Assembly (NCBI GenBank): GCA_007118145.1
Contig: SKSD01000010.1
Span: 69,896 to 133,895, forward strand
Direction: 5' to 3'
From: Halobacteriales archaeon
GTDB taxonomy: Archaea > Halobacteriota > Halobacteria > Halobacteriales > SKSH01
DNA length: 64,000 bases
Shown here: positions 9,439 to 57,407 of the stretch, in pieces
Layout of the letters: every line of letters begins with the position of its first letter
Position numbering within the stretch: position 1 is the first letter of the stretch
Program-made: the position numbers and the translations under genes
The notes under the pieces: generated by a model
What the model was told of the DNA's origin: nothing
Database searches by the model: none
The model's input: the letters and a program-made list of their open reading frames with translations, nothing else

Positions 9439-10146
9439 GTGTGTAGCTTGTTATTGGCTTGGCAACTGCTCTCTGATACACCGGTCGCACTCGCGGCCAA
9501 CCGCGATGAGCGATATGACCGACCGGCGAACGGTCCACGATTACTCTCTGCCGACCCGAGGGTACTCGCCCCGATCGATCATACCGCAGGGGGAACCTGG
9601 ATCGGCGTGAACGAACATGGCCTCGTCGTTGCCCTTGCCAACCGACGCGATGGGCCCGAGGGTGAGCGTTCTCGTGGACAGCTCGTCCGTGATCTCCTCG
9701 GGACCGATACGAGCGACGAGGCACGTACGTTCCTCGCCTCGTTACTCGCTGAGCACCAGTACGCAGGTTTTCATCTCCTGCTTGTCGACCCGTTCGACGC
9801 ATTTTACGCGACCTGGGACGGCACGCTCGATGGCATCGAGTTACACCCAGGTGTGCACGTGCTCGATAACGAGGGTCTTGATGAGGATGCATCTATCTCA
9901 CGCGATGTCCGCGGGCGCCTCGAACCCTCGGTCGGAGAGAGCGCTGATGAGTGGCTTAAGCGGGCCACGGCGATGCTCGCTGATCACGACCTCGGCCTGT
10001 GCAGGCATGGAGATGATTTCGGTACCGTATCAGCCACCCGGATCGCCGTCCACGACAAGAGCGACGCGTTCATCTCGTTCGATTATGCGGGTGGACCCCC
10101 ATGTACGACCGCATTCGAGGATGTGACACCGGAAGGCCACATTTAA
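9439..10146 (+). CDS. NRDE family protein (TANGO2/DUF833-like)
   Basis: LAANRDE motif near the N-terminus. The family usually starts M-C-x-L-L, which fits the GTG at 9439 (VCSLLLAW). An alternative ATG lies at 9409. Confidence 0.7.
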   Translation: MCSLLLAWQLLSDTPVALAANRDERYDRPANGPRLLSADPRVLAPIDHTAGGTWIGVNEHGLVVALANRRDGPEGERSRGQLVRDLLGTDTSDEARTFLASLLAEHQYAGFHLLLVDPFDAFYATWDGTLDGIELHPGVHVLDNEGLDEDASISRDVRGRLEPSVGESADEWLKRATAMLADHDLGLCRHGDDFGTVSATRIAVHDKSDAFISFDYAGGPPCTTAFEDVTPEGHI

Positions 10147-25268: not shown

Positions 25269-27095
25269 ATGACCATACTCTCACATGACGTCATCGTCGT
25301 CGGTGGTGGTGGTGCTGGGCTTCGTGCGGCGATAGCCGCTCACGAGGCTGGTGCCGATACGGCGATCGTGACGAAGCTCCACCCAGTCCGTAGCCATACC
25401 GGTGCCGCTGAGGGTGGTATCAATGCCGCCCTCAGGGATGGTGACTCCTGGGAGTTACACGCCGATGATACGATGAAGGGATCTGACTACCTCGGCGATG
25501 CACCTGCCATCGAGACGCTCGCCAGGGACGCACCTGAGAACGTGATCCAACTCGAGCACTGGGGCATGCCCTTTTCGCGTGATGATGATGGCAGGGTATC
25601 ACAGCGCCCGTTCGGCGGACTCTCCTTCCCGCGTACGACCTACGCTGGTGCAGAGACGGGTCATCATATGCTGCACACGATGTACGAGCAGGTCGTCAAA
25701 CGGGGTATCGAGGTCTATGACGAGTTCTACGTCTCTCGACTGGCTGTCTCCGATGAACCAGATCCGACCGACCGACAGTGTCACGGTGTCGTCGCGATCA
25801 ACCTCCGCCGTGGTGAACTCTGGGGATTCCATGCCCGCAACGGAGTGATCCTGGCAACTGGTGGACCTGGGCAAGTGTATGACCATACCACGAACGCCGT
25901 GACCTGTACCGGTGATGGCCACGCCATGGCGTACCGGGTCGGTGTTCTCCTCGAGGACATGGAGTTCGTCCAGTTCCACCCGACAACGCTCCCCTCCACA
26001 GGGGTGCTCATCTCCGAGGGTGTCAGGGGCGAGGGCGGCAAGTTGTTCAACGCACACGGTGAGCGCTTCATGTACGAACGTGGTTACGCGACGACCGCTG
26101 GTGAGCTCGCCAGTCGTGACGTCGTCTCGCGGGCTGAGCTGACCGAGATAGCCGAGGGGAGGGGGTTCGAGGATGAGTACGTCTACCTCGATATGCGTCA
26201 CCTCGGTCCAGAGCGGATTGAGGATCGACTCGAGAATATCCTCCATCTCGCCCGTGACTTCGAGGGCGTCGATGGGCTCACCGAACCGATGCCGGTCAAA
26301 CCTGGACAACACTACGTCATGGGTGGTATCGAGACGAACGAGCATGGTCAGACCTGTATCGACGGACTGTATGCAGCCGGTGAATGTGCCTGTGTGAGTG
26401 TCCACGGTGCCAACCGTCTCGGAGGGAACGCGCTGCCTGAGTTGATCGTCTTCGGGAGACGTGCAGGCTTGCATGCCGCAGGTGCAGACCTCGGGGATGC
26501 GATCATCTCGACCGGGCGTGACGATACAACCGAGCCCTGGGACGGTACATTCGACACACCCATCGGCTCGATCGAGACTGATACTGCCGTGACCGATGGT
26601 GGTTCAGCAGAGCCTGAGGAGGTGGTCAGTGCGGCCCTCGATGACGAACAACGGCGTATCGATGCACTCTTCGAGCGAGACGATGGCATCCGCCATGCCG
26701 AGGTTCGTCACAATGTTCAACAGACGATGACGGCTCACGTGAACGTCTTCCGTGAACCCGAGGGGATGCAACAGGCGCTCGCTGATATCCGTCAGGCACG
26801 CGTCGACTATCAGGATATCTTCGTCGAGGATACCTCAAAGACGTTCAATACAGACCTGATCCAGGCGATAGAGACACGCAACGTGATCGACGTGGCGGAG
26901 ACGATCGTGATGAGTGCGATCGCCCGGACGGAGTTCCGAGGGGCACACTGGCGAGAGGATTTTCAGTCACGTCGTGATGATGTCTGGCTGAAACACACAT
27001 TCGTCTCCTGGGACGACGGCCAGCCATCGCTCTGGTTCAAGCCAGTCTTGCTCGATGGAGAGCGAACGTACGAACCGAAGGAACGGAGTTACTGA
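25269..27095 (+). CDS. sdhA: succinate dehydrogenase flavoprotein subunit
   Basis: FAD fold VVGGGGAGLRAA and covalent-FAD histidine region RSHTGAAEGGINA. 608 aa. Confidence 0.92.
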   Translation: MTILSHDVIVVGGGGAGLRAAIAAHEAGADTAIVTKLHPVRSHTGAAEGGINAALRDGDSWELHADDTMKGSDYLGDAPAIETLARDAPENVIQLEHWGMPFSRDDDGRVSQRPFGGLSFPRTTYAGAETGHHMLHTMYEQVVKRGIEVYDEFYVSRLAVSDEPDPTDRQCHGVVAINLRRGELWGFHARNGVILATGGPGQVYDHTTNAVTCTGDGHAMAYRVGVLLEDMEFVQFHPTTLPSTGVLISEGVRGEGGKLFNAHGERFMYERGYATTAGELASRDVVSRAELTEIAEGRGFEDEYVYLDMRHLGPERIEDRLENILHLARDFEGVDGLTEPMPVKPGQHYVMGGIETNEHGQTCIDGLYAAGECACVSVHGANRLGGNALPELIVFGRRAGLHAAGADLGDAIISTGRDDTTEPWDGTFDTPIGSIETDTAVTDGGSAEPEEVVSAALDDEQRRIDALFERDDGIRHAEVRHNVQQTMTAHVNVFREPEGMQQALADIRQARVDYQDIFVEDTSKTFNTDLIQAIETRNVIDVAETIVMSAIARTEFRGAHWREDFQSRRDDVWLKHTFVSWDDGQPSLWFKPVLLDGERTYEPKERSY

Positions 27096-27185: not shown

Positions 27186-27692
27186 TCACTCGGCGGTGAA
27201 TCGGATATAATCGAGATCATCGACATCATCGTTACCAAGCGTCTCGAACGTCATCCCGATATCAACATGTTCCTGAGGGGCGAGCTCTCCGAGTATGCCA
27301 GGGTTATCCGTGGCACCGAAGATAATCACATCTTCGACAGGCTCATCGTTCTCGTTCATGCCACGTGCTTCAAGCGAGATCGTATTCGACCCCTGATTGG
27401 TTGCCCGAATCAGGTTTGAAAACGTCGTCTGACCCTCATCGTTGATATCAGCATCTGTGAAATCGAGGTACAACAGCCCATCCGCATCGTAATCAACCTC
27501 TGGCGGATATGGACTATCCTCGCGATCAGGATGGGGTGCGAGCATCAGATACCCGCTTGCATCACCACCGACACTGACGTCAACGTCCCTGTGAAGCTCG
27601 ATGCGATCGAATGCTCCACTCGCTCCGACGGTCCCGTATCCAATGGCGATACCTCCCAAGATGGTCAAGGCAGTTCTGCGTGTCACCGGCAT
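27186..27692 (-). CDS. secreted protein with RR-containing signal peptide (archaeal DUF1102/TasA-camelysin-like candidate)
   Basis: N-terminus MPVTRRTALTILGGIAIGYGTVGASGAFDRIELHRDVDVSVGGDASGYLMLAP. The signal plus GAF...V.V..D....L.L pattern recalls archaeal SipW-dependent secreted proteins. It is the last gene of a signal-peptidase operon. Confidence 0.65.
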   Translation of the reverse strand: MPVTRRTALTILGGIAIGYGTVGASGAFDRIELHRDVDVSVGGDASGYLMLAPHPDREDSPYPPEVDYDADGLLYLDFTDADINDEGQTTFSNLIRATNQGSNTISLEARGMNENDEPVEDVIIFGATDNPGILGELAPQEHVDIGMTFETLGNDDVDDLDYIRFTAE

Positions 27693-27724
27693 GGTGGACC
27701 GTACCCTCTAGGCGGAATCGTATA

Positions 27725-28723
27725 TCAATCACCGGCTGGAGTGTGATGCATATACCATGTGCCATCGATCACCACCGCCGCAGTCCCACGGTTGTCGAGC
27801 AAGATCGGCGTTCGATGGGTACGTGCCAAGGTGTGTAACTCAGCATGTTCGTCGACGACGATACCGTGACGAATACTGATCGGTGTGCTGACCTCAACAT
27901 ATCGGGAGGGATGTCTCGTGTGTAACCACCGCATCCGATGTCTCGACCGAGCAGCAGATGACATGGGGAGGACACCGGTGAGACGTAGCCCGACCAGTCC
28001 GAGGAGGATACCGGTACCGAGGGCGACCGTGAGCACCCATGTCTGTGAGCCTGTCGACCCACCGGTCACCGCCTCATAGTGACGGATGCCATCGTGCTCG
28101 ACCACGATCACCTCCTCGTCGAACGCAATCGAAAGCTCTGCCGTGTGAACGTGTACCCGTGCATCGGTGACCTGAACCGACGCAAGAACGCTCACCTCGA
28201 GGGTGCCAGCCGTCGTCCCGTAGCGATCATCGAGGCGCTCTGCCAACCGTTCGATACGGTCGATATCGAGATGCACTGGTGAGGTGTGGACGTGAGTGTG
28301 TCCAGGTGCCGTGATAGAATCATTCACCAGCGGGGTTTCATACCGCCACAGCGTGGTACCGCCGTAGGTGCGCTCTACCTGTAGATCAACCATAAGCAAG
28401 ACACGATCTACGGTATCGAGTGTCCGGTCATACTCATAGGTGAACGTGGCAGGTATCGTCGACTGATACGCTCTGACGAACGCACCATCACCCCCGAGCG
28501 TCACAGTGCCATCATCACCGATCGTCTCAACCGTCATCGCCTGGGTGAGTTCGAATCCAACGCGTTCGATCACCACCTGTTCGTCGTCATGACCGTCGAT
28601 ATCAGCCAGGAACAGGGTCGAACCCCCGTAAAGCACGAGGCTGACACCGATGAACAAACAGAGGAGAAATCGGTTATCGACGAGGAGAAGCAACCCACTC
28701 GTGAGACCATCTAGACGTGTCAT
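27725..28723 (-). CDS. bitopic membrane protein (DUF5305-like), signal-peptidase operon member
   Basis: N-terminal TM (LLCLFIGVSLVLYGG), a long beta-rich ectodomain and a C-terminal TM (TWVLTVALGTGILLGLVGL). ATGA overlap with the upstream peptidase gene. Confidence 0.55.
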   Translation of the reverse strand: MTRLDGLTSGLLLLVDNRFLLCLFIGVSLVLYGGSTLFLADIDGHDDEQVVIERVGFELTQAMTVETIGDDGTVTLGGDGAFVRAYQSTIPATFTYEYDRTLDTVDRVLLMVDLQVERTYGGTTLWRYETPLVNDSITAPGHTHVHTSPVHLDIDRIERLAERLDDRYGTTAGTLEVSVLASVQVTDARVHVHTAELSIAFDEEVIVVEHDGIRHYEAVTGGSTGSQTWVLTVALGTGILLGLVGLRLTGVLPMSSAARSRHRMRWLHTRHPSRYVEVSTPISIRHGIVVDEHAELHTLARTHRTPILLDNRGTAAVVIDGTWYMHHTPAGD

Positions 28724-29637
28724 CGTCGAGGTGGTGCCGGGGGGAGGATGGTCGCTGTGATGTGGGCGATGGCGTACATAAACAATCCTGTCGAGGAAGA
28801 AACCATGATGATCCCCAAGAGTGGATCGAGTTGGGTGAGTCGCTCGACGAGCCCTGGATGTCCAACCCCGACCAGGAGTTCGTATCCGATGTACTCAGTG
28901 AGATCAACCCGCTGTCTCGGCCAGAGTATGACGACATCAGGCGATGTCACCTCCCGATGTAACACAGCCATGATCGGGACGAGACCAGCGTTGACGAGTT
29001 CAGTATCTGCCTGGGGTGGTGATCGTACCCCACCAAGTAGCCAGCCGAGCACTGGAATACTGGCAGCGAGTGCACCGATCGAACGAGGTGATGGTGCTCG
29101 AACCGATCGCCCTGTGTCCACACTCAGTATGAGAGTGATGACACCGACGCTGATGATAGCCGTCATCGTGAGATCATCTTGGACGGGAAGCCCGGAGAGG
29201 GCGAGTGGCCTCCCACCCCACTCCGGTATCGAGGCGACCACCCCATGGTGAGGGACTGGTGGATCACCTGTTGCCTGATCGGTGAACGGGTTCGCATCAC
29301 CCTTCGTGAGATACCCCTCTGGTGTCGATTCGACCACCCTGTGGACCGTCCATCCATCCTCACCCTCGAACACGATAATGTCGCCAGTTGTTACGTCAGA
29401 CAACATCGGCGGGATCCCAAGGTAGATGTCACCTTGAGTAAGAGTCGGCGACATACTGTCAGAGGTGACAACGCCGAATGGTACAGGCTGACCGATGCTC
29501 ATGAGCAGACCGACGCAAAATCCGATGAAGATGATCGTCACGAATGTCGACACACGGTTCATCTCAGCATACTTCCACACAGACTGCGTGATCGATATCG
29601 TCCCATAGCGTCGAGTATTAGCCCCCTTCTCAGGCAT
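28720..29637 (-). CDS. signal peptidase I, archaeal/SipW (S26B) type, with polytopic C-terminal extension
   Basis: Catalytic Ser box SDSMSPTL and the conserved box TKGDANPFTD after an N-terminal TM. About 150 aa of extra C-terminal TM segments. Trimmed to the ATG at 29637. Confidence 0.75.
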   Translation of the reverse strand: MPEKGANTRRYGTISITQSVWKYAEMNRVSTFVTIIFIGFCVGLLMSIGQPVPFGVVTSDSMSPTLTQGDIYLGIPPMLSDVTTGDIIVFEGEDGWTVHRVVESTPEGYLTKGDANPFTDQATGDPPVPHHGVVASIPEWGGRPLALSGLPVQDDLTMTAIISVGVITLILSVDTGRSVRAPSPRSIGALAASIPVLGWLLGGVRSPPQADTELVNAGLVPIMAVLHREVTSPDVVILWPRQRVDLTEYIGYELLVGVGHPGLVERLTQLDPLLGIIMVSSSTGLFMYAIAHITATILPPAPPRR

Positions 29638-29768
29638 AAAGCAAAGGGCGGTCTCGACATCCGATGAGAAGACAGATGTGGTGAACCTACACACGCTAAC
29701 GGGTGGATACATATCGCTTCACGTTCTCGTTGGACGTGGAACGAACCACCTACCCACACCACCATATT

Positions 29769-31157
29769 ATGAGTGAACTTGACCGCATTTCGTTCGGAAC
29801 AGACGGCTGGCGAGACCATCGATCGGCATTCACCGACACACGGGTTCGAGCGGTTGCATCAGCGTTTGCTGATCATCTCCACGAGCTTGATGTGGGGACT
29901 GACCGGGTTGCCATAGGGTATGATGCTCGACGTGATTCACCAGATATCGCACGGACGATCGCCGAGACGATCACTGCCTATGGATTCGATGTGTGGTTGG
30001 CATCACGTGACTGCCCCACCCCTGCCATCGCATCGGTGATCGATGAGTTCGATCTTGTCGGTGGTGTGATGGTCACCGCTTCGCACAACCCACCAGCATA
30101 TAACGGCATCAAACTGATCCCATATGGAGGTGCGCCTGCACTACCAGAGCTGACTGACGCCATCGAGGCAAACCTTGGGAGGGAGACCGAACCCGAGGGG
30201 TATCCCAGTGGTTCGACGACAAGCTTCGACTTCGTCGAACACCACGTCGAGACGGTGTTGAGCCGAGTCGACACCGCGTTGCACGATCTCACGGTCGCAT
30301 ATGATGCGATGTACGGGAGTGGCCGTGGCGTGACCGATACCGCGCTCGAACGGGCAGGTGCGAATGTCCGCCGGTTGCGGTGTGATCGAAAGGAGGACTT
30401 CGGTGGAGACGCACCGGAACCTGACGAACACCGTCTCAAGACATTGATCGAGGTGGTGACGAGCGGAGAGGCAGACCTCGGTATCGCTAATGATGGTGAT
30501 GCTGACCGCGTTGCGATCGTCACCCCCTCGGGGTTCGTCAATGCCCATCTACTGTTCGCACTGATGTATGAGGATTTACTCAAAGATGCGTCCGGTCCCG
30601 CCGTTCGCACCGTCTCGACGACGTTCCTGATCGATCGCATCGCGGAGGCACATCACGAGCAGGTCATCGAGACAGCCGTTGGGTTCAAATGGGTGGCTGC
30701 AGCAATGGCACAACACGACGCGCTCATCGGTGGTGAGGAGAGTGGTGGATTTACTGTCCGCGGCCATGTACGTGAAAAGGACGGCCCACTTGCTGCATTA
30801 CTCCTCGCTGATGCACACCATCGACGCTCGATCGATGAACGGGTAGACGATCTGTTGGATCAGTACGGTCAGATTTTCCAGGTCACAGAGAGTGTCGATT
30901 GCCCTGATGAGGAGAAAGCAACCGTGTTACACGACCTCAACGAGCAACAACCGACGCAACTCGCAGGGCGCTCGGTCGAGGCGATAAACGATACCGATGG
31001 TCTGAAATTCCTCCTCGAAGACGGGTCGTGGGTCTTGATCCGACCAAGCGGCACGGAACCGAAACTACGTGTATATGCCGAGGCAGCGAGCGAATCGTCT
31101 CTGAGGGCACTGATCGATGCAGCGACGAGTATCCTCGATAAAATCAGAGATAGTTGA
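29769..31157 (+). CDS. phosphoglucomutase/phosphomannomutase (alpha-D-phosphohexomutase)
   Basis: Active-site TASHNPPAYNGIK and metal loop ANDGDADR. Trimmed to the ATG at 29769. Confidence 0.85.
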   Translation: MSELDRISFGTDGWRDHRSAFTDTRVRAVASAFADHLHELDVGTDRVAIGYDARRDSPDIARTIAETITAYGFDVWLASRDCPTPAIASVIDEFDLVGGVMVTASHNPPAYNGIKLIPYGGAPALPELTDAIEANLGRETEPEGYPSGSTTSFDFVEHHVETVLSRVDTALHDLTVAYDAMYGSGRGVTDTALERAGANVRRLRCDRKEDFGGDAPEPDEHRLKTLIEVVTSGEADLGIANDGDADRVAIVTPSGFVNAHLLFALMYEDLLKDASGPAVRTVSTTFLIDRIAEAHHEQVIETAVGFKWVAAAMAQHDALIGGEESGGFTVRGHVREKDGPLAALLLADAHHRRSIDERVDDLLDQYGQIFQVTESVDCPDEEKATVLHDLNEQQPTQLAGRSVEAINDTDGLKFLLEDGSWVLIRPSGTEPKLRVYAEAASESSLRALIDAATSILDKIRDS

Positions 31158-31250
31158 GCTTGTTTTATTAGATACCGATGGTTATTGACGAAATCAAATA
31201 TTGCTTTTATCGAAAATTTATTAACCTATGATAGTACTAGATGAAGTAAG

Positions 31251-31754
31251 ATGGTTGTTGAAATTTCATACAACGGTTCCGGAAATAGCTTAATCGTCGG
31301 ATTAGAAGGGGACTATTCAATCGATGATGTACGGACCGTCGTCAATCAACTCGAGGGTGAGATGTCCATCGAGTATCTCGAACTCGTCTTACAGGTCGAT
31401 GAGGGTGTCTCACTTGCCCTCCCGGAAGAGGGTGGCGATATCGGCCTCCCGCTCGCACCGACTTCGATCTCTCGCACTGCATCGAACCTGCAGATAGATA
31501 GCGTCCCTTACCACATCGTCGAACTCCTTGCTAACTCAGATGAACCACTCCGGACAGAGGAGATCACTGACCTGCTTGATGGTATTGACCTTGAGCAGAA
31601 CGAGATTGCCTCTCGGTTATGGAACCTCTCTGAACGAGGTCTCGTCGAGAAACACCCGTATCCGGAGGACAAGAGACAGAAGGTGTACCGACTCACGACA
31701 CTTGGACAGACAGCTCTCGAACAGGCAAAGGAACGGCGAGCTGAAGAGGCATAA
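31251..31754 (+). CDS. MarR/PadR-like winged-helix regulator with unknown N-terminal domain
   Basis: C-terminal half HIVELLANSDEPLRTEEITDLLDGIDLEQNEIASRLWNLSERGLVEKHPYPEDKRQKVYRLTTLG is a wHTH with wing. The gene and its upstream spacer are visibly more AT-rich than their neighbours. Confidence 0.6.
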   Translation: MVVEISYNGSGNSLIVGLEGDYSIDDVRTVVNQLEGEMSIEYLELVLQVDEGVSLALPEEGGDIGLPLAPTSISRTASNLQIDSVPYHIVELLANSDEPLRTEEITDLLDGIDLEQNEIASRLWNLSERGLVEKHPYPEDKRQKVYRLTTLGQTALEQAKERRAEEA

Positions 31755-31793
31755 ACTATCGTACCGTGTTCTGCTTTTCTCGCTAACGTCACT

Positions 31794-32115
31794 TTACGGA
31801 ATTTCGAGAAGGAAAACCCGTACTTTGAGCGGGGATGCATCCGACGGCAGGGACGGTGACTACAGGGTTAGCTTGCCTGACGGTAGGTCGTGTCGTACGC
31901 ACATCCTGCGGATATTGGAGTTGGAGTGGGGTCTCCGTCAACAAAAGGCAACCCTGCGTAGGATGTTCTACTCGCCCAACGTGGGTGAGTCGGGTCGATG
32001 GCACGGCCTTGTGAGGTGAACGCGGATACCTCAGCACACCACGCCTCAAACGAGGCCCGACGGGCTTGCTGTCTTACGAAAGAATCCTCGACATTCAGGT
32101 CGGAGAGGATGTCAA
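31794..32115 (+). mobile_element. tnpB-less IS200/IS605 (IS1341-type) tail element with omega-RNA-like scaffold, copy 1
   Basis: About 320 nt, non-coding and co-linear with 40985-41368. Shared blocks are GGATGCATCCG, CAGGGACG, ATTGGAGTTGG, AACCCTGCGT, an identical 18-mer GGGTGAGTCGGGTCGATG, and TGTGAGGTGAACG. A long-range helix pairs 31848-31862 with 31952-31965. A terminal hairpin lies at 32089-32102, followed by GAGAGGATGTCAA. The decayed peptide PCEVNADTSAHHASNEARRACCLTKESSTFRSE resembles haloarchaeal TnpB C-termini as I remember them. Confidence 0.55.
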
Positions 32116-32143
32116 ATAGCGGACCAACCGCCCTACCGATCTC

Positions 32144-32884
32144 TCACTCTGGCTTCGGTGAGGTGATGTCACCCTGCTCGGTCAGGCGGCGCTCTGCCTC
32201 ATCTCGATCTTCGGGGAAGCCAACGTCGATTCGCCACCCCTCCATCCGGATGGCATCGATCGTCCGTCCTGAGTGGATCAGCAGATCGATTGCCTCAGAG
32301 ATCTCGTACTCACCACGGTTCGATGGCTGCACCAGATGACAGGCGTGAAATATCGCTGGGGTGAACGTGTAAAAGCCGGTCATGACGAGGTTCGTAGGTG
32401 GATCAGCCGGTTTTTCGATCACCTCAACAATCTCACCATATTCGTTCGTGTCACATACACCATACCGCGATGCCTCCTCATACGGCACCTCTTCGACGAG
32501 GAAGGCTGCATCGGCGCGATCCTCTTGCTGACGGTTGATCACATCACCCAGGTTTGCCTGGAAGATGTTGTCACCAAGCATGAGCATGAAATCGTCATCG
32601 ATGTGTTCTTCCACGGTCAACAGTGCGTGAGCCAGTCCGAGCTGATCACGTTGATGTGTGTATGTGATCGGAACGTCGTTGTAGCTATCTCCGAACCGAC
32701 TGATGATCTGTTCCTTCTCGTAACCGACGACCACGTAGATATGCTCAGCACCGAGGTCGACGATATTGTCGAAACAATAGGACAGAAGTGGTCGACCTGC
32801 CACCTCTACTAATCCTTTGGGAGTATCCGCAGTGAGTGGACGTAACCGAGTGCCCTCACCGGCAGCTAGTACCACTGCATCCAT
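32144..32884 (-). CDS. sugar-1-phosphate nucleotidyltransferase (glucose-1-phosphate uridylyl/thymidylyltransferase, AglF-like)
   Basis: N-terminal LAAGEGTRLRPLT motif, 246 aa. Divergent from a UDP-glucose dehydrogenase gene. Confidence 0.85.
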   Translation of the reverse strand: MDAVVLAAGEGTRLRPLTADTPKGLVEVAGRPLLSYCFDNIVDLGAEHIYVVVGYEKEQIISRFGDSYNDVPITYTHQRDQLGLAHALLTVEEHIDDDFMLMLGDNIFQANLGDVINRQQEDRADAAFLVEEVPYEEASRYGVCDTNEYGEIVEVIEKPADPPTNLVMTGFYTFTPAIFHACHLVQPSNRGEYEISEAIDLLIHSGRTIDAIRMEGWRIDVGFPEDRDEAERRLTEQGDITSPKPE

Positions 32885-33065
32885 GCGTAGACGGTCGGTT
32901 TCAATCTACATATGTCTGTGGCTTGTGGGGTCGATGAGGTCTCACTTCACGAGTTGCTCTGAAGATATTGGATGACAGAACGCCGCAGGGTTGTCTGATG
33001 AGCATCTCAGTGACAACGAACCTATAGTGTGTGAGAACTTTGAGAGTGATATGGGTAGTGGGTCG

Positions 33066-34367
33066 ATGCACATATCGGTCGTTGGAAGTGGCTATGTCGG
33101 GACCACACTGGCTGCCTGTCTGGCCGACCTCGGTCATGAGTCGGTCGCCATTGACATCGATGAGACTACCGTCTCGCGACTAAACGCTGGCGAGTCAACG
33201 ATACATGAACCCGGGCTGGATGAGCTGTTAACCAGGCATGCCGGTGACAGGCTTCGCGCAACGGTCGATCACACAGCGGTGGTCGATACAGCGATGACAT
33301 TCTTGGCCGTCGGTACGCCGGCGAACCCTGATGGGACGATCGATGAGCGGGCATTGGTACAGGCAGCACGTGATGTCGGTGAGGCACTCCGTGCGAAGGA
33401 AACATATCACCTTGTCGTCATCAAATCGACGGTCCCACCCGACGTTATCGAGGAACAGGTTATCCCCGAACTCACCGACGCAGCGGGTAGGTCACTCGGC
33501 GAACACCTCGGTCTCGCGGTCAATCCAGAGTTCCTCAGAGAGGGTTCGGCCGTGGAAGATTTTCTCAATCCGGACAAGATCGTCCTCGGCACGACGAACG
33601 ATCCCCAGGCCACCCGTCTATTAGAGACACTCTTTCGCCCAATCGCCGAGCGCAGTGGTGCCACCATCGTCTCGACCGGGCGGGCTGAGGCCTGTCTCAT
33701 CAAATACGCCAACAATGCGTTTCTCGCAGTGAAACTCAGTTTCATCAACGATCTCGGGAACGTCTGCAAGGCATATGGGGTCGATACCTACGAGATCGCC
33801 GAGGCGATTGGTCTCGATCACCGGATCAGTCCATCGTACCTCCGATCAGGTCTTGGATGGGGTGGGTCGTGCCTCCCTAAGGATACAACAGCCCTACTGC
33901 AGGCGGCACGATCACATGGATACAACCCGCCGCTCATCGAGGCGGCGATCGAGGTGAACGAGCTTCAACCCCAGCGGATGCTCGCACTCCTTGAGCGTGA
34001 GCTCTCGATACCTGGAAAACGTATCGCTGTGTTGGGTCTCGCGTTCAAACCAGGTACGGACGATATCCGTGAAACACGTGCCATCCCGGTGATCGAAGGC
34101 CTCCTTGAACGCGATGCTGAGGTCATCGCATATGATCCAAATGCGGATGCAGTCGATGCCATGCGATCACAGTTCCCAGAGATCTCGTACGCTGATTCTG
34201 CCGAAGATGCACTGACCGGAGCTCAGGCAGCCTGCATCGTCACCGATTGGCCAGAGTTTGCTGAACTCGACTGGGCTTTTGCTGGGATGTCCCGACCGTT
34301 GGTGATCGATGGAAGGAGAATCATCGAACCCAGTGATGAGATCGAGTATCACGGTCTGACGTGGTAG
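33066..34367 (+). CDS. UDP-glucose 6-dehydrogenase (AglM-like)
   Basis: Rossmann VVGSGYVGTTLA and catalytic Cys region GWGGSCLPKD. Start at the ATG at 33066 (MHISVVGSG), with an alternative ATG at 33051. Confidence 0.85.
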   Translation: MHISVVGSGYVGTTLAACLADLGHESVAIDIDETTVSRLNAGESTIHEPGLDELLTRHAGDRLRATVDHTAVVDTAMTFLAVGTPANPDGTIDERALVQAARDVGEALRAKETYHLVVIKSTVPPDVIEEQVIPELTDAAGRSLGEHLGLAVNPEFLREGSAVEDFLNPDKIVLGTTNDPQATRLLETLFRPIAERSGATIVSTGRAEACLIKYANNAFLAVKLSFINDLGNVCKAYGVDTYEIAEAIGLDHRISPSYLRSGLGWGGSCLPKDTTALLQAARSHGYNPPLIEAAIEVNELQPQRMLALLERELSIPGKRIAVLGLAFKPGTDDIRETRAIPVIEGLLERDAEVIAYDPNADAVDAMRSQFPEISYADSAEDALTGAQAACIVTDWPEFAELDWAFAGMSRPLVIDGRRIIEPSDEIEYHGLTW

Positions 34368-49917: not shown

Positions 49918-50133
49918 AATGATGTTGAGAGCGTTCACCGTTTTGAGCAGAGCAATCCACCCAGCGGTACTGTCGAACTAGGACTATGGATCTATGATAT
50001 CCAGTGGTTTGTCAGACCAGATTCCTAAATACATTCTGTTGTTCTGGAACCAATAAAAAGGGTCAACTCGTTACTGGCATGTGGGAATCTACGTAGCACG
50101 TTATTGGTGAGATAACCGCATCTCTAGTCAGTC

Positions 50134-50934
50134 ATGATGGAATCTCCACTGCACCAGCAGGTGCACGACAAGGAAGGGCGTCCCATTCCCCTCGATCTGG
50201 AAGATACGACGTGTGTTGTGACCGGTGCCTCAAGAGGTATTGGAAAGGCAATCGCGACCGAACTCGGACACCGTGGTGCCAATGTCGTAGTCAACTATCA
50301 CTCCTCTGATACAGCTGCGAACACCGTGGTCGATCACATCCAATCGACCAATGGGAAAGCGATGGCCAAAGCAGCGGATGTGAGCGATCACGAGGAGGTG
50401 GCTGCGATGTTCGAACACGTCCGTGAATCGTTCGGTCCGATCGATGTCTTGGTCAATAATGCAGGCATCACTATCGACAGGCGATTCGACCAGCTCACCG
50501 CACATGATTGGTCTCGTGTCATGGAGGTCAACCTCGGTGGGCCGTTCAACTGTACCAAGGCCTGCTACGAGGATATCAGATCAAGCGATCACGGCAGGGT
50601 AATCAACATCTCGAGTGTGATCGGCCAGACTGGTAATTACGGACAGACGAACTACGCTGCATCGAAGAGCGCTCTGTTCGGATTCACCAAATCACTCGCT
50701 CTGGAGCTTGCCCCCCACGGATCTACTGCCAACTGTGTTGCTCCTGGGTACACCAGAACGGACATGGTCGATAATGTCCGTGAAGATATCCAAGATCGCA
50801 TTCGGTCGAAGATACCTCTCGACCGGTTTGCCACACCTGCGGAGATAGCCTCGGTTGTTGGTTTTCTGGCTACCAAGCGCTCCTCATACGTGACTGGTGA
50901 GATCATCAACGTCAACGGTGGCCTCAATGGCTAA
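50134..50934 (+). CDS. short-chain dehydrogenase/reductase (FabG-like 3-oxoacyl reductase)
   Basis: TGASRGIGKAIA cofactor motif and catalytic YAASKSA. Confidence 0.85.
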   Translation: MMESPLHQQVHDKEGRPIPLDLEDTTCVVTGASRGIGKAIATELGHRGANVVVNYHSSDTAANTVVDHIQSTNGKAMAKAADVSDHEEVAAMFEHVRESFGPIDVLVNNAGITIDRRFDQLTAHDWSRVMEVNLGGPFNCTKACYEDIRSSDHGRVINISSVIGQTGNYGQTNYAASKSALFGFTKSLALELAPHGSTANCVAPGYTRTDMVDNVREDIQDRIRSKIPLDRFATPAEIASVVGFLATKRSSYVTGEIINVNGGLNG

Positions 50935-51202
50935 GGAGGAATCGACCAATCTCGCTGGTGACACCATCATCCACCGTGGGATTTCTCCAGAGGATTTCTC
51001 GATCATCAATAGTCTGGATACAGCAACGGCCAAACTGGTCTACCTACACCTGACCATCGTCGAAGAGGCCACACCATACGAACTCAAACACGACCTCGGC
51101 ATCGACCTGCTCACACTCTATCCGATCCTGGAACAGCTACGAGCAATGGAGATATTCGAGCAAGATGGTGCATATTATCGCTGTACGAGCGCAATCAATT
51201 GA
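50927..51202 (+). CDS. small winged-helix protein
   Basis: 91 aa. TATAKLVYLHLTIVEEATPYELKHDLGIDLLTLYPILEQLRAMEIFEQDG looks like a TrmB/MarR-type wHTH. Overlaps the SDR stop by 8 nt. Confidence 0.5.
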   Translation: MAKEESTNLAGDTIIHRGISPEDFSIINSLDTATAKLVYLHLTIVEEATPYELKHDLGIDLLTLYPILEQLRAMEIFEQDGAYYRCTSAIN

Positions 51203-51524
51203 TCCTTCATTCAATCGACGGTGATGATTGACCCTCGAACTGATTCCAGGCGTGAGTCTCCCAGGCGAATGACGATTTTTCTATAGCGATATCCAATTTA
51301 GCTTATAATCGTATCCGCTCAATCGAAATCGGTGACGACACGCAAAAAAAGCAGAAAATTTGTTGTAAAGACTAACCTCAGATAGTGAATATGATACATA
51401 TGAAGACGAATTTGATAGTATATATTCAAAAAGGTATGGCACCGTAATCAGGTATCACCATCAATATCATCGTTGTCTCTCAGCTCTCGATAATCGATGT
51501 AGTACTGATGGTACATCGAGACCA

Positions 51525-51725
51525 ATGTGCAGTATGGCCACGACAACCGTCACAAAAGCAGCAGAATCAGCGATGCGACTGATCGATCTACAACCTGAGG
51601 ATGAACCTCCGATCTCGGAGGAGGTGGACAAGAAATCTCGACGGACGAAGTTGCTTCAGGGCTTTGTGGTATTTGGCATCATGTTCATCGTCCTGTATTG
51701 GGGATTGTCGCGACGCTCTGATTAG
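51525..51725 (+). CDS. small membrane protein, tentative
   Basis: 66 aa with an acidic N-terminal part and one C-terminal TM (LLQGFVVFGIMFIVLYWGL). No family recognised. Confidence 0.3.
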   Translation: MCSMATTTVTKAAESAMRLIDLQPEDEPPISEEVDKKSRRTKLLQGFVVFGIMFIVLYWGLSRRSD

Positions 51726-51728
51726 GTA

Positions 51729-51945
51729 GTTGACATCCTCCCCGCGCTGAAGCGCGAGGCTTTCGCCTCGTTTTCCTCGTAAACGTTTCGATTGGAAAGT
51801 AGTTTTCACCATCCAAGCCAACTCCAGACACCACGATTGTGTACAGTTGAGCAGCGGCTCGTCTCACATAATCAGGGTTGGTCAAGCTGGCGACTACGTG
51901 ATGACCATCATCCTCCGACGTGGGACTCGTCTGCCCAACCACTCT
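51729..51945 (-). pseudogene. 3-prime fragment of an IS1341-type tnpB gene with its right end
   Basis: The minus-strand peptide NPDYVRRAAAQLYTIVVSGVGLDGENYFPIETFTRKTRRKPRASARGG recalls a decayed D-x-D-x-NAA-x-NI ... G-x-G ... P-V-E-T tail. It ends with the hairpin CGCGC-TTCA-GCGCG followed by GGGAGGATGTCAAC at 51729. It also shares GGAGTTGG with the long copies. Confidence 0.45.
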
Positions 51946-52192
51946 GATATTCTAGATTAACTGAGCGGATGATACCGTCTTCATTGTTGGCGAGGCATCA
52001 TTACATCAAACCAATCTCCCAGACTGTCAAGAATTGATAGTGAGATGGTGTGGTAGTTCCACCTCAAATGACACTAGACAAAGGTATTAAGTTCCGTTGA
52101 TTATAACCGTTAGCTAATGGATGCCGCTTGTGGTCCTGCCTACAAACGTGATTCAAACAAACCGGTCACTGACACGATACAACAGGTACCCC

Positions 52193-52510
52193 ATGGAATC
52201 AGATAAACACCAAAGCGTCGATGCATTCGTGGCCGCCATTTCTTCAAAGCACCGACGAGATATCATCAGAACCCTCCGAGATGTAGAAGACAATACCATG
52301 ACCCTCGACGAGATGGTCAGTCAGCTCGCTGTTACATCCTTTGAAAGCCGACCTCATGATGAAATCCGAATCGTCTTGCATCACAAGCACCTGCCAGTAT
52401 TAGCCGAATGTGACCTCATCGAATACGATCATCGGTCGGGTATGATATCGTTACGAAGCGACATTGCACAACCAGGCATCCTTGCGCTCGTCAATACCCT
52501 CGATACGTGA
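52193..52510 (+). CDS. DUF7344-type winged-helix protein (soluble form)
   Basis: SKHRRDIIRTLRDVEDNTMTLDEMVSQLA ... RIVLHHKHLPVLAECDLIEYD matches the haloarchaeal wHTH family with the H-H-x-H-L-P-x-L motif. Trimmed to the ATG at 52193. Confidence 0.6.
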   Translation: MESDKHQSVDAFVAAISSKHRRDIIRTLRDVEDNTMTLDEMVSQLAVTSFESRPHDEIRIVLHHKHLPVLAECDLIEYDHRSGMISLRSDIAQPGILALVNTLDT

Positions 52511-52525
52511 CAACCAATTGCGCAC

Positions 52526-53677
52526 TCAATCCGATGCGCTCGTCATCTCTTCGGGGAATTTCTCAGATAGCATCGTATCAAGCGGATTTCCCTCGATAGA
52601 CAGCGGAAGGTCGACACGTTCCCTTCGACTCGCAGATTCATAACAGGCAAATATGAGTTCTGTTCCTCTGATCACCCGTCTGCCGGAGATGACCGGTTCG
52701 ATCCCATCTCGAATGCCTGAGACCACGTGCTCGATCGCTCGCTCGTAATGGCTCGGCTCACCGATCCAATTCCCGGACATGCCGGGGATGTTCTTGATGA
52801 GCTTATTCGTCGCTGCAGCAGCGAGACTCGATGAAGGGCGATATACCGTCTCTCCGTTGGTATCAACCGTCTGCCAGCCATCACCTGTATCGATGCGCAG
52901 TGGCGGACCATCCGGGTGTTGAATCTCGATGATACCATCCTCGCCGACGATACGAAGGTAGGGATCGACCACTGTCTGGTCGGACGCCTCTGCGGTTGAT
53001 GCCAGACCGAGGACGCCATTCGTGTATCCCCAGGTGGCAATCCCGTGAGCGTCGTTAATCGCTCCAAACCAACGGTTATCAGGGTCGATATCGACAGCGG
53101 CGAGCGCCCACGCAGGAGTGGCACCATCCGTGAAGTGATCACAGAGATCGAAGAGGTGACTTCCCGCATCGAAGAGATTCACCTCGCTCCATTCGAGTCG
53201 GCGGATCGGACCGATCATGCCACCGTCGATGCGAGCCTTGGCCTCCTGTACGGGGATGGAAAGCCGTCGCTGATGGTTGATCGTCAACTGAACATCGTTA
53301 TCATCGCAGGTGTCTACCATCTCACTGCATGCCCCCCAGCTAGTCGCCATCGGTTTCTCACAATGTATCGCCTGGAGATCGCCATGCGTCGCACAATCGA
53401 GCACTAATTCAGCATGTGCTGAGGGTGGCACGCAGATACTGACGATGTCCAAATCGACTCCCTCAAGCATTTTGATGTGACTGTCGAACCAGTCATCAAG
53501 TTCGAAGTGCGAGGCAAAACTGGCTGCATGCTCTGGTATGATATCAGCACAGGCAACGAGTTCACAATCATCTAACCGTCTGTACCCAGGGGCGTGTCGA
53601 TATGCCATCGCATACCCATCTCGGCTTTTCGTCTTGGGATCAACACCTGTCCCGATAATTCCCACACGGTAGACCAT
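52526..53677 (-). CDS. Gfo/Idh/MocA family oxidoreductase
   Basis: N-terminal Rossmann VGIIGTGV ... and the family-typical layout (EKPMA-like CEKPMATS). Confidence 0.85.
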   Translation of the reverse strand: MVYRVGIIGTGVDPKTKSRDGYAMAYRHAPGYRRLDDCELVACADIIPEHAASFASHFELDDWFDSHIKMLEGVDLDIVSICVPPSAHAELVLDCATHGDLQAIHCEKPMATSWGACSEMVDTCDDNDVQLTINHQRRLSIPVQEAKARIDGGMIGPIRRLEWSEVNLFDAGSHLFDLCDHFTDGATPAWALAAVDIDPDNRWFGAINDAHGIATWGYTNGVLGLASTAEASDQTVVDPYLRIVGEDGIIEIQHPDGPPLRIDTGDGWQTVDTNGETVYRPSSSLAAAATNKLIKNIPGMSGNWIGEPSHYERAIEHVVSGIRDGIEPVISGRRVIRGTELIFACYESASRRERVDLPLSIEGNPLDTMLSEKFPEEMTSASD

Positions 53678-53719
53678 CGCTCTAATGAGACGGCAAGTCA
53701 GTCAATTAGTATAGACCGG

Positions 53720-54889
53720 TTAAGTCGTCAGGTCACCGGATGAATCCGTGGTGACATCTCGGTCGATTTCCTCAGTGGGTGATGAGGTATCACTCGAGTG
53801 GACATGCTCACAATCGTATACTTCACGTGTGGAAGCGGCGATATCGTGCCAGTCCATTTGCGCGGCTAATCTCCGATTTTCCTCGCCCATCATACGGAGT
53901 GGTGTTGTCTCATCGAGCGCACGGATGAGTGCATTTTCGAGCCCGGTTTCGCTGTCGTGATCATAGGTTATTCCCCCACGGTCGCTGATGAGTTCTGCTG
54001 GGCAACCGACATCGGGGATCACCAGAGCTCGGCCATACGACATTGCGAGGATAGCACTGCCAGAGGTGAGAATCGAATCGAACGGGAGCACCACGGCATC
54101 CGATGCGAGCAGATATCGAGCCACATCCTCATCAGGAATGAATTCAAGGCGAGTCATCACTCGTGTATCGTCGCCTGCTGCATCCGATACCTGTTGTTGA
54201 AGGTTATCATTCCATGGATTTCCCACGATGAGAAGTTTCGACGACGGATCAGTAACTAGCCGTCTGAAGGTGTGAATCAATCGAGGGACGTTCTTATACG
54301 GTCGAATCAGTCCAAAGTAAAGCAGCACCCGATCATTTGAATGAATACCAAGAGTATCACGCGCAGCATCGGCCGAGGTAACCGTTGGATAACTATCGAT
54401 GAAATGACCGTGGGGGATGACACTGATCCGGTCGACATATGCATCTGAGAGTCGGTATGTTTGACAGACCGCATCGACAGCAGACTCACAATGTACGATC
54501 AAGTGGGTGCTCAATCTAGCCCAACCCATACGGGTCAACAGATCCACCCTCGGCGTGTGTGACTCGTGAGCTCGCAGATTGTGAACTGTCCATACGACAT
54601 CCGTGCCTAGAACCCGTACGATGAGTAACTCAAAAAGCGTGCGTAGCCCAAGCAGTGCTGCCAACAGCCACCGGTCAGTCCCGATGAACGCCGTCACCCA
54701 ATGGAGGTGGATGACATCAGGTCGACTGTTGTGGTACCACGCTCGGAGGATCGGACACATGATATCGGCATCTACCAGATCCACAGCCACGCCTTGCTCA
54801 TCGAGAGCGCGTATCAACCGCTCCTGATAGGGATTCCTCCTGGTATAGTCGGGCAGCATCACCACACTGAGCCGTTTTGAATCGCTCAT
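53720..54889 (-). CDS. glycosyltransferase, GT-B fold (family 4-like)
   Basis: C-terminal half LLYFGLIRPYKNV ... LLIVGNP ... SDAVVLPFDSILTSGSAILAMSYGRALV is typical of GT4. Trimmed to the ATG at 54889. Confidence 0.8.
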   Translation of the reverse strand: MSDSKRLSVVMLPDYTRRNPYQERLIRALDEQGVAVDLVDADIMCPILRAWYHNSRPDVIHLHWVTAFIGTDRWLLAALLGLRTLFELLIVRVLGTDVVWTVHNLRAHESHTPRVDLLTRMGWARLSTHLIVHCESAVDAVCQTYRLSDAYVDRISVIPHGHFIDSYPTVTSADAARDTLGIHSNDRVLLYFGLIRPYKNVPRLIHTFRRLVTDPSSKLLIVGNPWNDNLQQQVSDAAGDDTRVMTRLEFIPDEDVARYLLASDAVVLPFDSILTSGSAILAMSYGRALVIPDVGCPAELISDRGGITYDHDSETGLENALIRALDETTPLRMMGEENRRLAAQMDWHDIAASTREVYDCEHVHSSDTSSPTEEIDRDVTTDSSGDLTT

Positions 54890-55103
54890 CAGTGTACCAT
54901 TATCGACTGATCTGTCCCCAGCCAGGAATGTGACAGACAATCATGGATCAGATGCCGGGATGGAATCACAACTGAGGCGTGGGAATCGATCATGTTCATC
55001 AACTTGTGCCATCCATTCACGTCGTTAAGCAGTGATTACTGCCTGTGCGAACGGTCCTTGCGCAACAACAGACACAGGTTGTCGCCAATATCAGAGCCAC
55101 CTA

Positions 55104-56231
55104 TCACTGTTGAATCCAGGCGTCGACGTGATGGGTCGGGGTGTACGATTTCCCAACGATGTCCAACCGACCATCCCCGTTTAGATCGACAACTTTCGCC
55201 TCATGGGTTGGAATGCCCTGAGAGAGTAACTCGGGATGAAAATCCCCATGACCATCATTTCGGTATAAGAGGTGTCTCGAATCGTGGTTCGTCCCAAGTC
55301 CCATCTCAGCGACGAAAATGTCCGGGACACCTGTGTCGGTGAAATCCGCCAGTTGTAACGTATGGGGATTGTGCAGATCGTCAGCCAGCACCGTTTCATC
55401 TTGATCGACTGGATCGAACACACCCAATCTGCCAAGTTTACCATCGTGATAGGGTCGATCACCCTCAGCAAGGACAATCTCGGGAGTACCATCACCGTTG
55501 AGGTCCCCTACAGCGACACGTGTCCATCGCCACCCTGGGGCGAACGTTTCACGACGCCACGACCCCTGCTCTGAGATGAACACGTTCCCTCCAGCGATGA
55601 GTTCTGGTCGGCCATCCCCGTCAATATCCACGACTTCCACACCTTCGACATCAACTCCATCTGCGATGAGGTGTCGATGGCTGGTCGGCCACGGTGATCG
55701 GGTCGGATCGTCGGGGATGTCATAATAACAGATGGTCTCACTGAGTTGTGAGAGAATGATGACCTCAGGTCGGCCATCTCCATCGATATCTGCGATCTGT
55801 GTGTCGTGATACTTGTGAAAGTCATCGGTGATGAGATATCGTGGCCAGGGTTGGGTAGGATCTGCAGGCTGTTCGAACCAGTAGAGTTCGTTGCCGAGAT
55901 TTTGCCCAACGACCATATCGTTTCGTCCGTTGCCTGTGATATCCCCGAGGGAGGCACCGACGCTCAAATCAGGCGATGTCACCACATCATGTCGAACCCA
56001 GCCAGGGTTCTCATACCAGAACACGTTACTCTCGAGTCGTCGGATAACACGCCCAACAGCTGGAAGATAACGCAGTTTCAGTGTCTTACCGAACAACGAC
56101 AGTGGCCGTTCTGCACCCAATCCACCGACGATGACATCAGGTAGGCCGTTACCGGTGAGATCCTCGGTGAGACAAAAGGCCAATCTTCCACAAGGAGGCT
56201 TGTCATCGATTCGTACATGTGCAAACTCCAT
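55104..56231 (-). CDS. FG-GAP/VCBS repeat beta-propeller protein, no signal peptide
   Basis: Repeated calcium-loop-like motifs DIDGDGRPE (twice), DLNGDGTPE, DLNGDGRLD, DITGNGRND. Confidence 0.8.
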   Translation of the reverse strand: MEFAHVRIDDKPPCGRLAFCLTEDLTGNGLPDVIVGGLGAERPLSLFGKTLKLRYLPAVGRVIRRLESNVFWYENPGWVRHDVVTSPDLSVGASLGDITGNGRNDMVVGQNLGNELYWFEQPADPTQPWPRYLITDDFHKYHDTQIADIDGDGRPEVIILSQLSETICYYDIPDDPTRSPWPTSHRHLIADGVDVEGVEVVDIDGDGRPELIAGGNVFISEQGSWRRETFAPGWRWTRVAVGDLNGDGTPEIVLAEGDRPYHDGKLGRLGVFDPVDQDETVLADDLHNPHTLQLADFTDTGVPDIFVAEMGLGTNHDSRHLLYRNDGHGDFHPELLSQGIPTHEAKVVDLNGDGRLDIVGKSYTPTHHVDAWIQQ

Positions 56232-56328
56232 TCAGGGAATAGTTGGTGAAAAACCTGCATCGTAAGCCTGCCTCTAATGGTACGACAAATGGGAGCAATA
56301 CAGTATCCGAGAATATGATGAGATGGTG

Positions 56329-57279: not shown

Positions 57280-57407
57280 CAAGCATCCTTACCGCAGATG
57301 AAGTATAGTAATCCTTGCGTTAATCGAAAATTGACATAACGTACCTAACGAATGCAGACCAGCGATACATCTGATACCAGGAACCGAAAACCACTAGACG
57401 GAGTATA

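Follow-up and report, generated by a model that had tools for sequence, protein, structure and literature searches.

Tat-fimbriae (Tafi) are recently recognised archaeal surface filaments, thin at about 4.5 nm, and neither the polymerisation of pilins that are exported in a folded state by twin-arginine translocation (Tat), nor the role of the DUF5305 protein TafG, nor that of the C-terminal domain of the signal peptidase TafD is understood. In Haloarcula hispanica they are encoded by tafA-tafG, which include genes for the Tat-signal pilins TafA, TafC and TafE, the four-helix signal peptidase TafD and the DUF5305 protein TafG, and deletion of tafD led to the loss of TafA processing and of filaments (PMC11821415). 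In Natrinema sp. J7-2 a TafE-type pilin alone makes the shaft by strand donation, and the filaments form bundles and promote biofilm formation (PMC12337348). DUF5305 proteins have been described as putative accessory subunits of signal peptidase I (SPase I), with an extracellular beta-sandwich, two transmembrane (TM) helices and a cytoplasmic domain (2026 AbpX preprint, 10.64898/2026.01.04.697558). Here we describe three adjacent genes in a 64,000-nt stretch of DNA (contig SKSD01000010.1 of a Halobacteriales archaeon; the whole stretch is called the window below) that probably form a compact, minimal Tafi pilus operon made of a tafD-like, a tafG-like and a tafE-like gene.

The locus is assigned to Tafi because the peptidase, DUF5305 and TafE-type pilin families together define Tat-fimbriae. 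It represents a known system in reduced form and not a new kind of machine, and apart from the reduction it is an ordinary member of the system already described. An earlier note on this DNA had regarded such modules as essentially uncharacterised in haloarchaea, a statement that is outdated given that, through work of 2023-2025, tafA-G are known both genetically (PMC11821415) and structurally (PMC12337348). Its central proposal, a dedicated peptidase encoded together with its own substrate bearing a twin-arginine (RR) signal, was upheld by a pass of the peptidase model TIGR02228 and by homology to the pilin of structure 9p0a: a signal peptidase of the endoplasmic reticulum (ER)/archaeal type is co-encoded with a beta-rich fibre subunit resembling TasA and the archaeal bundling pilins (ABP).

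Organization of the locus

All coordinates given here are positions within the window, and the three genes of the module lie on the minus strand. They correspond to co-directional open reading frames (ORFs) at 28720..29712 (counted from the first ATG; gene 1), 27725..28723 (gene 2) and 27186..27692 (gene 3), so that the order is tafD-like, tafG-like, tafE-like. The stop codon of gene 1 and the start codon of gene 2 overlap in an ATGA at 28720-28723, through which gene 2 is translationally coupled to gene 1, and a 32-nt spacer separates the gene 2 stop from the gene 3 start. Direct reading of the DNA thus bore out the overlap, the spacer and the shared direction of the three genes as first noted, and the motifs SDSMSPTL, GDAN and GASGAF were all found in the ORF translations. 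The peptidase and DUF5305 genes are followed directly by the pilin gene, and the three apparently make up a single operon.

Gene 3 encodes a pilin of the TafE superfamily

When gene 3 was compared with all PDB sequences a single match was obtained, the 'Pilin' of 9p0a, which is the Tafi pilus of Natrinema sp. J7-2 (E 4.9e-9). The best NCBIfam match was TafE (NF052522, 'TafE family fimbrial adapter', E 1.5e-14), and the TafA model (NF052520) was matched at E 6.5e-6 with 26 bits (cut-off 190). Judged by these matches, gene 3 is clearly homologous to TafE/TafA at the level of the superfamily, where it would represent a divergent subclade and be an orthologue of neither named protein. An exhaustive hidden Markov model (HMM) search returned 1571 representative proteins at E <= 1e-3 (one per 50%-identity cluster), and because just 10 of them were below 1e-30, gene 3 is placed in a small subclade of a large superfamily. 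A scan of the genome collection with the pilin alignment gave no confirmed relative.

The pilin begins with MPVTRRTALT, in which RR occupies residues 5-6 and is followed by 22 uncharged residues, as read directly. This N-terminus can be aligned to Natrinema TafE's Tat signal (RRNVL motif) with no gaps. The motif is nearly invariant within the subclade, and RR is found near the N-terminus in 130 of 154 family members. The Tat signal peptide predicted from the RR motif together with the gapless alignment comprises residues 1-27, MPVTRRTALTILGGIAIGYGTVGASGA (27612..27692, minus strand), and cleavage is predicted after A27, with S at -3 and A at -1, that is, between the A and the final F of GASGAF. 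The next residue, F28, aligns to the first modelled residue of Natrinema TafE, also F28 (188 of 215 residues are modelled in 9p0a), and Phe30 was identified by mass spectrometry as the first residue of mature Haloarcula hispanica TafA (PMC11821415). Because F28 is aligned with the first modelled TafE residue and corresponds to TafA Phe30, it is taken as residue +1 of the mature pilin. The earlier note had the signal peptide ending in GASGAF; the motif is present, but its F is the first residue of the mature protein and not the last of the signal peptide.

The mature pilin of the TafE superfamily (27186..27611, minus strand, stop codon included), identified by the 9p0a match, the NCBIfam TafE model, AlphaFold2 (AF2) and Foldseek, has 141 aa, a mass of 15.5 kDa and an isoelectric point of 4.05, and no N-glycosylation sequon (N-X-S/T) was found in it. 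It consists of an N-terminal donor strand, FDRIELHRDVDVSV, followed by a beta-sandwich core. In 145 family members the residues after the cleavage site follow the pattern F-x-x-V-x-A-x-R-x-V-x-V-x-V-x-x-D-x-x-x-[LYF]-L, a strict alternation of hydrophobic and polar residues, and the window pilin, FDRIELHRDVDVSVGGDASGYL, fits this pattern at all conserved positions (F1, I4, L6, R8, V10, V12, V14, D17, Y21 and L22). AF2 modelled the core (residues 45-168) as an all-beta domain with a predicted local distance difference test (pLDDT) score of 70-88 and left residues 1-44 disordered and not packed on the core. Such an unstructured segment is expected, because a subunit of this kind would donate its N-terminal strand to a neighbour. 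A Foldseek search of the PDB with the model ranked 7ueg (AbpA) first (E 6e-5), 9p0a fourth and 7pnb (the Sulfolobus thread) fifth; a search against viral folds was uninformative, with high root-mean-square deviations.

These results agree with the original idea of a TasA-like fibre subunit as far as structure is concerned, since the protein has a beta fold and a donor-strand signature and its best structural matches are archaeal bundling and donor-strand pili. The families that had been suggested for gene 3 were not recovered: no Pfam match was obtained even at E <= 10, DUF1102 (PF06510) included, and the SipW-dependent signal TIGR04088 was not reported at E <= 1. A weak DUF1102 match was seen in a related pilin of Natrinema halophilum (BLASTP E 8e-9 to gene 3).

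It could be argued that gene 3 encodes a surface or secreted protein that is exported by Tat, is served by a private peptidase and never forms a filament. Some TafE homologues are indeed predicted not to form filaments (PMC12337348), and the window pilin is unusually small, with only its N-terminal two-thirds aligning to 9p0a. However, the donor-strand signature would have no role in a monomer, and yet it is kept at every conserved position, while the N-terminal 44 residues are left unpacked in the model and the best structural matches are subunits of filaments. A non-polymerising protein is therefore an improbable reading of gene 3, and the pilin assignment is retained below.

Gene 1 encodes a TafD-type signal peptidase

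Gene 1 (28720..29562, minus strand) encodes a TafD-type dedicated SPase I of 280 aa, as indicated by TIGR02228, hhalign, AF2 and Foldseek. It passed TIGR02228, the NCBIfam model of archaeal signal peptidase I, with 61.9 bits (cut-off 51.85), and it scored 23.8 bits against the SipW model NF046067 (cut-off 190). In the protein an N-terminal TM anchor and a Sec11-like catalytic domain are followed by two TM helices, by a small beta ectodomain spanning about residues 178-232, and by a fourth TM helix. Four hydrophobic helices are thus predicted, as in TafD, and the polytopic C-terminal extension that had been put at about 150 aa measures about 155 aa and contains three further hydrophobic helices. 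The catalytic-domain residues are S36, H74, D89 and D95, and these are invariant among the homologues together with R75. The AF2 model (pLDDT 78) gave human SEC11C/A and the pilus-associated SipA of S. pyogenes as the best Foldseek matches.

Beyond its own small clade, gene 1 is most closely related to peptidases of about 350-390 aa from haloarchaea and Thermococcales. Alignment with hhalign to the TafD-like peptidases of about 380 aa gave a probability of 100 and 46% identity over residues 21-134 only, and MAFFT placed a V-x-N-x-G-x-x-P strand and the segment before the fourth TM helix in register with canonical TafD, with large deletions. One such TafD-like gene, in Natrinema halophilum, is followed by a DUF5305 gene and has a pilin gene beside it. 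Generic archaeal peptidases of 242 aa match gene 1 far more weakly, at about 1e-6.

These comparisons bear on the question of whether gene 1 is simply the housekeeping Sec11-type signal peptidase of the cell, placed next to an RR protein incidentally. The general archaeal signal peptidase I model was passed, and no other signal peptidase was found in the 64-kb window, both of which would be expected of a housekeeping enzyme. However, gene 1 has the four-helix architecture of TafD and not the short Sec11 form, its closest relatives are TafD-like and linked to DUF5305, and it is translationally coupled to gene 2 and syntenic with the pilin gene in all lineages. In addition, TafD of Har. hispanica is dispensable for growth but needed for TafA processing (PMC11821415). 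This makes a housekeeping role very unlikely, and gene 1 is best regarded as the processing enzyme of the module, which would cleave the product of gene 3.

The start codon of gene 1 required revision. Homologues in six other lineages are 264-280 aa long and have a TM helix as their N-terminus. A strain that is about 98-99% identical over these genes carries a 1-nt indel that takes the first ATG (29712) out of frame, and the start at 29637 favoured in the earlier note is an ATG that belongs to a conserved TATA-like box. Because of the homologue lengths, the broken frame and the TATA-like box, the start of gene 1 is most likely at 29562, giving the product of 280 aa.

Gene 2 encodes a DUF5305/TafG-type membrane protein

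Gene 2 (27725..28723, minus strand) encodes a peptidase-accessory membrane protein of the DUF5305/TafG type with 332 aa, recognised by PF17231, its TM segments and the ATGA overlap. The match to Pfam PF17231 (DUF5305) had an E value of 9.3e-12 and 45.3 bits (cut-off 29); DUF5305 was among the families suggested for an HMM check, and it was found above the cut-off in gene 2. Two TM segments (about residues 12-37 and 230-251) enclose an ectodomain of about 190 aa, and a basic cytoplasmic tail of about 80 aa follows the second, so the protein is not bitopic, the term used for it in the earlier note. This predicted topology would be the one described for the DUF5305 family, from which the fold is taken (10.64898/2026.01.04.697558).

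Pairwise BLAST of gene 2 against the canonical 467-aa TafG-like protein gave no match, and because of this the membership of gene 2 in TafG rests on the HMM match. A word-index homologue search with gene 2 returned only gene 2 itself, and a profile of its orthologues found no match in the PDB. Orthologues of gene 2 come after the peptidase gene in every related locus.

Conservation across lineages

The same trio in the same order was found on the metagenomic contigs L005-7, L008, L090 and L092 (L090 and L092 are partial) and in the metagenome-assembled genome (MAG) L052. Identities to the window across these loci are 31-41% for gene 1, 22-36% for gene 2 and 38-63% for gene 3. Because the same order recurs in at least six divergent lineages, the arrangement is not due to chance. 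Pseudogenisation was considered and ruled out, as all three genes keep open frames throughout the lineages and neither the catalytic nor the donor-strand residues vary.

In L052 and in L091, the trio lies between sdhA and a phosphoglucomutase/phosphomannomutase (PGM/PMM) gene, exactly as in the window. Module and genomic site are thus kept over proteins that are just 29-63% identical. L052 was found by a second scan of the genome collection, using SdhA, and is the sole syntenic MAG located; no module was found next to sdhA in the other 79 sdhA loci, which come from named haloarchaeal and other genomes. SdhA of the window (25269-27095) shares 81-83% identity with that of uncultured Halobacteriales and Haloarculaceae MAGs, while no cultured genus exceeds about 73%. 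Because SdhA is closest to uncultured MAGs, the window is placed in an uncultured haloarchaeal lineage. The pilin subclade was likewise seen only in metagenome-derived data.

The module was also compared with its closest copy, L091 (window 27186-29562 against L091 4076-6452, about 98-99% identical). The ratios of nonsynonymous to synonymous substitution rates (dN/dS) were 1.08, 0.55 and 0.40 for genes 1-3, and for comparison 0.11 for sdhA, 0.16 for a neighbouring winged helix-turn-helix (wHTH) gene and 0 for a nucleoside triphosphate (NTP) transferase gene. The counts behind these values are small, at 7-26 substitutions per gene, and most of the changes are conservative.

Two related loci, of one lineage, carry a mobile element. 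A TnpB of the IS605 family (OrfB_IS605/Cas12f1-like_TNB, 417 aa) is present at L003 1058-2311 and L002 812-2065, and in L003 it sits between the DUF5305 gene and the pilin gene, adjoining a TTGA(T/A) at the gene 2 stop. The insertion leaves the pilin spacer intact. L002 has no gene 2 homologue upstream of the insertion sequence and may be a rearrangement or an assembly variant.

Upstream elements and the pilin spacer

A TATA-like box, TTTATG (29635..29640, minus strand), is a candidate promoter element of the operon on the strength of its position and conservation. In the window, L052 and L005/6 it lies at -78/-79 relative to the ATG of gene 1, and the related sequences GTTTAC/ATTTAC occupy this position in L008 and L092. 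A sigma-70 promoter and terminator scan of the window gave nothing useful, the model not being applicable to archaea, and Rfam and tRNA scans of the window found nothing.

Between this box and gene 1 there is a short upstream ORF (uORF), MGRYRSRSLCGSMLR followed by a stop codon (29559..29606, minus strand), whose stop overlaps the gene 1 start in an ATGA and which was recognised by its conserved position. Its ATG is at -44..-47 from gene 1, about 33 nt past the TATA-like box, in six of six lineages (window, L052, L005/6, L008, L090 and L092), and in all six the uORF has 12-19 codons and its end falls between -6 and +13 relative to the gene 1 start. In the background such an arrangement is seen at 9 of 617 ORF starts (1.5%). 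The peptides vary between lineages, and a position that is kept without conservation of the peptide suggests that the uORF is leaderless and may be coupled to gene 1 by termination-reinitiation. In Natrinema halophilum (L089) a 16-codon uORF at 9942-9995 ends 5 nt ahead of the start of the canonical TafD-like gene, and an A/T-rich TATA-like run is found at the annotated start itself.

The 32-nt spacer before the pilin gene contains an octamer, GGTCCACC (27693..27700, minus strand), immediately 5' of the pilin ATG, which stands out by its invariance across loci. It is identical in the window, L003, L005-7, L008 and L091, and L052 has it with one extra C, while the remainder of the spacer (16-32 nt long in all) diverges between loci. 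An in-frame TAG 5 codons upstream marks the octamer as non-coding, and it lacks complementarity to the anti-Shine-Dalgarno sequence.

Genomic neighbourhood

The module is flanked by sdhCDBA, the PGM/PMM gene, a gene for a soluble wHTH protein and genes for sugar-nucleotide enzymes. The divergent PGM/PMM gene (29703-31157, plus strand) has its probable start at the ATG at 29769 (MSELDRISFG...) rather than at the GTG at 29703, and related loci conserve both the MSELD start and CACTCAT, its reverse complement. From 29769 to 34367 the module is flanked by the sugar-nucleotide genes for PGM/PMM, NTP transferase and UDP-glucose dehydrogenase. Further away (50000-62000) there is a stretch of lower GC content (0.48-0.50, against 0.55-0.61 elsewhere) that encodes a GT1 glycosyltransferase, a GFO/IDH/MocA oxidoreductase and an FG-GAP repeat protein, and the sugar-nucleotide and low-GC genes may belong to a surface-glycan or envelope island. 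The neighbouring wHTH protein of 167 aa was considered as an equivalent of TafB and rejected, because it has no TM helix, is unlike the DUF7344 regulator of the canonical locus and travels with PGM.

Assembly model and its limits

The data are consistent with the following model of how the module would work. Transcription would start from a promoter shared divergently with the PGM/PMM gene, the short leaderless uORF would bring ribosomes to gene 1, gene 2 would be translated through the ATGA coupling and the pilin gene would follow 32 nt on. The pilin would be exported in a pre-folded state through the Tat translocon by means of its RR signal and would stay tethered to the membrane by the uncleaved h-region until it is cut after A27 by the TafD-like Ser/His peptidase (S36/H74), which the DUF5305 protein would assist as accessory subunit. 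Cleavage would release the amphipathic N-terminal strand FDRIELHRDVDVSV, and by donor-strand complementation this strand could then enter the open beta-sandwich of an adjacent subunit. The product would be a thin, acidic, homopolymeric filament for adhesion or biofilm formation. Of all this, the gene order and coupling, the families of the three proteins, the Tat and cleavage motifs, the donor-strand signature and the synteny were established here, and Tat export, the cleavage site, processing by gene 1, polymerisation and anchoring are deduced by homology.

Several findings weigh against the Tafi assignment. The alignment of gene 3 to 9p0a covers residues 2-109 only, the protein is 47 residues shorter than Natrinema TafE, with an alignable part limited to the N-terminal 110 or so residues, and its score against the TafE HMM, 54 bits, is far under the equivalog cut-off of 155. 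The pilin model is of moderate quality, with an overall pLDDT of 66 and template modelling (TM) scores of about 0.4 in the structural matches. For gene 1, only the catalytic domain was aligned by hhalign to the canonical TafD-like enzymes and the C-terminal Ig-like (immunoglobulin-like) domain went undetected; in the AF2 model the C-terminal beta domain has about 55 residues, compared with about 125 in canonical TafD. The dN/dS of gene 1, about 1.1 on just 12 substitutions, is high. Finally, no tip (TafC), anchor (TafF) or TM regulator (TafB) was found in the window or in related loci, including L052 and L005, and without a gene for any of the three the nucleation and anchoring of the filament are left unexplained.

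The last of these points raises the possibility that the module is not self-sufficient, and that gene 3 is a minor or adapter pilin, or the trio a second unit for processing that serves a larger Tafi locus elsewhere in the genome, where the major pilin, tip and anchor would be encoded. TafE is such a minor or adapter pilin in Haloarcula hispanica, and the best NCBIfam match of gene 3 is the model named 'TafE family fimbrial adapter'. Duplicated tafD/tafG pairs occur in some Natrinema genomes (PMC11821415), and while the genes for a tip, an anchor and a regulator are absent locally, just 64 kb of the genome is visible. Against this, the TafE-type protein of Natrinema is the major pilin and makes the shaft alone (PMC12337348), the isolated trio is kept at the same chromosomal site in several lineages, and no second RR/GAF pilin-like ORF or match to the A1 profile was found in the 64-kb window. 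An accessory role is thus rather unlikely, though less so than the two alternatives considered above, and a compact Tafi operon in its own right remains the preferred explanation.

A stronger proposal is that the trio is a complete and self-sufficient minimal machine for a donor-strand pilus. In that case the TafD-like peptidase and the DUF5305 protein would serve as both processing and assembly platform, and the filament would be anchored by the last-added pilin, left uncleaved and held by its Tat signal peptide, so that no tip, usher or anchor is needed. The stoichiometry of expression would be set by the conserved leaderless uORF, with termination-reinitiation onto the peptidase gene, together with GGTCCACC at the pilin start. 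We offer this only tentatively and consider it doubtful. If it were true, the trio would show which genes Tat-dependent archaeal pili need at a minimum, and DUF5305 would gain a role that can be tested.

The reduction of the system to a peptidase with an apparently shortened TafD C-terminal domain, a DUF5305 protein and one pilin of 141 residues narrows what can be essential, and the trio is small enough to serve as a construct for rebuilding the system in a host that lacks taf genes, such as Haloferax volcanii (PMC11821415). With this locus the TafE superfamily also takes in a clade of short pilins, of about 168-174 aa, that so far comes only from uncultured haloarchaea. The shortest members of this clade, including the window pilin with its 168 aa, fall under the 170-aa length filter of the published survey (PMC12337348).

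Comparison with known systems

The Tafi of Natrinema sp. J7-2 share with the window locus the RR signal, a cleavage motif of G-x-G-A followed by F, and F28 as the first mature residue. The donor strand is conserved (FSSVEADRTVSV in Natrinema and FDRIELHRDVDVSV in the window), the pilins are acidic beta-sandwich proteins, and genes for a TafD-type peptidase and a DUF5305/TafG protein are present at both loci. In Natrinema the shaft is built from a TafE-type protein only and, to judge from the genes, the same would hold here. However, the mature pilin of the window has 141 aa compared with 188, with about 22% identity in the Foldseek alignment, and equivalents of the tip NJ7G_2827, of TafF1/F2 and of TafB are missing. 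The window locus also differs in that the pilin gene comes directly after the D and G genes in one operon and in that the peptidase has an apparently shortened C-terminal domain.

The Tat-fimbriae of Har. hispanica resemble the window locus in their processing parts, namely a TafD with four TM helices that is needed for pilin maturation and a TafG that is a DUF5305 protein, and in having Tat-signal pilins. The two differ in gene number, with seven genes in Har. hispanica and three here, as TafA, TafB, TafC and TafF are absent from the window locus, and in the Ig-like domain of TafD, which has about 125 aa in Har. hispanica and is predicted to be reduced to about 55 aa here.

The likeness to tapA-sipW-tasA of Bacillus subtilis is one of logic only. 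In both cases a dedicated signal peptidase of the ER type (Ser/His) is encoded beside a donor-strand fibre subunit, and a similar G-x-x-A-x-F-like motif is found at the junction of the signal peptide. However, TasA is exported by Sec and not by Tat, the window locus has a DUF5305 partner and no TapA-like nucleator, and homology between TasA and the window pilin was not detected at the sequence level.

The archaeal bundling pili are composed of pilins with Sec signals from hyperthermophilic Thermoproteota, and no sequence similarity to the window pilin was found. Even so, AbpA of Pyrobaculum calidifontis (7ueg) is the best structural match of the window pilin model, and the parallel to the TasA-like bundling pili of Pyrobaculum that was drawn from the sequence is supported by this result. 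In the AbpX system the peptidase linked to the pilin has ten TM helices, which sets it apart from the four-helix enzyme described here. At the same time, AbpX and its SPase I in Pyrodictium abyssi show that a pilin and a dedicated peptidase can be a minimal locus, and DUF5305 recurs as an SPase accessory in many abpX loci (10.64898/2026.01.04.697558), as it does beside the peptidase gene of the window.

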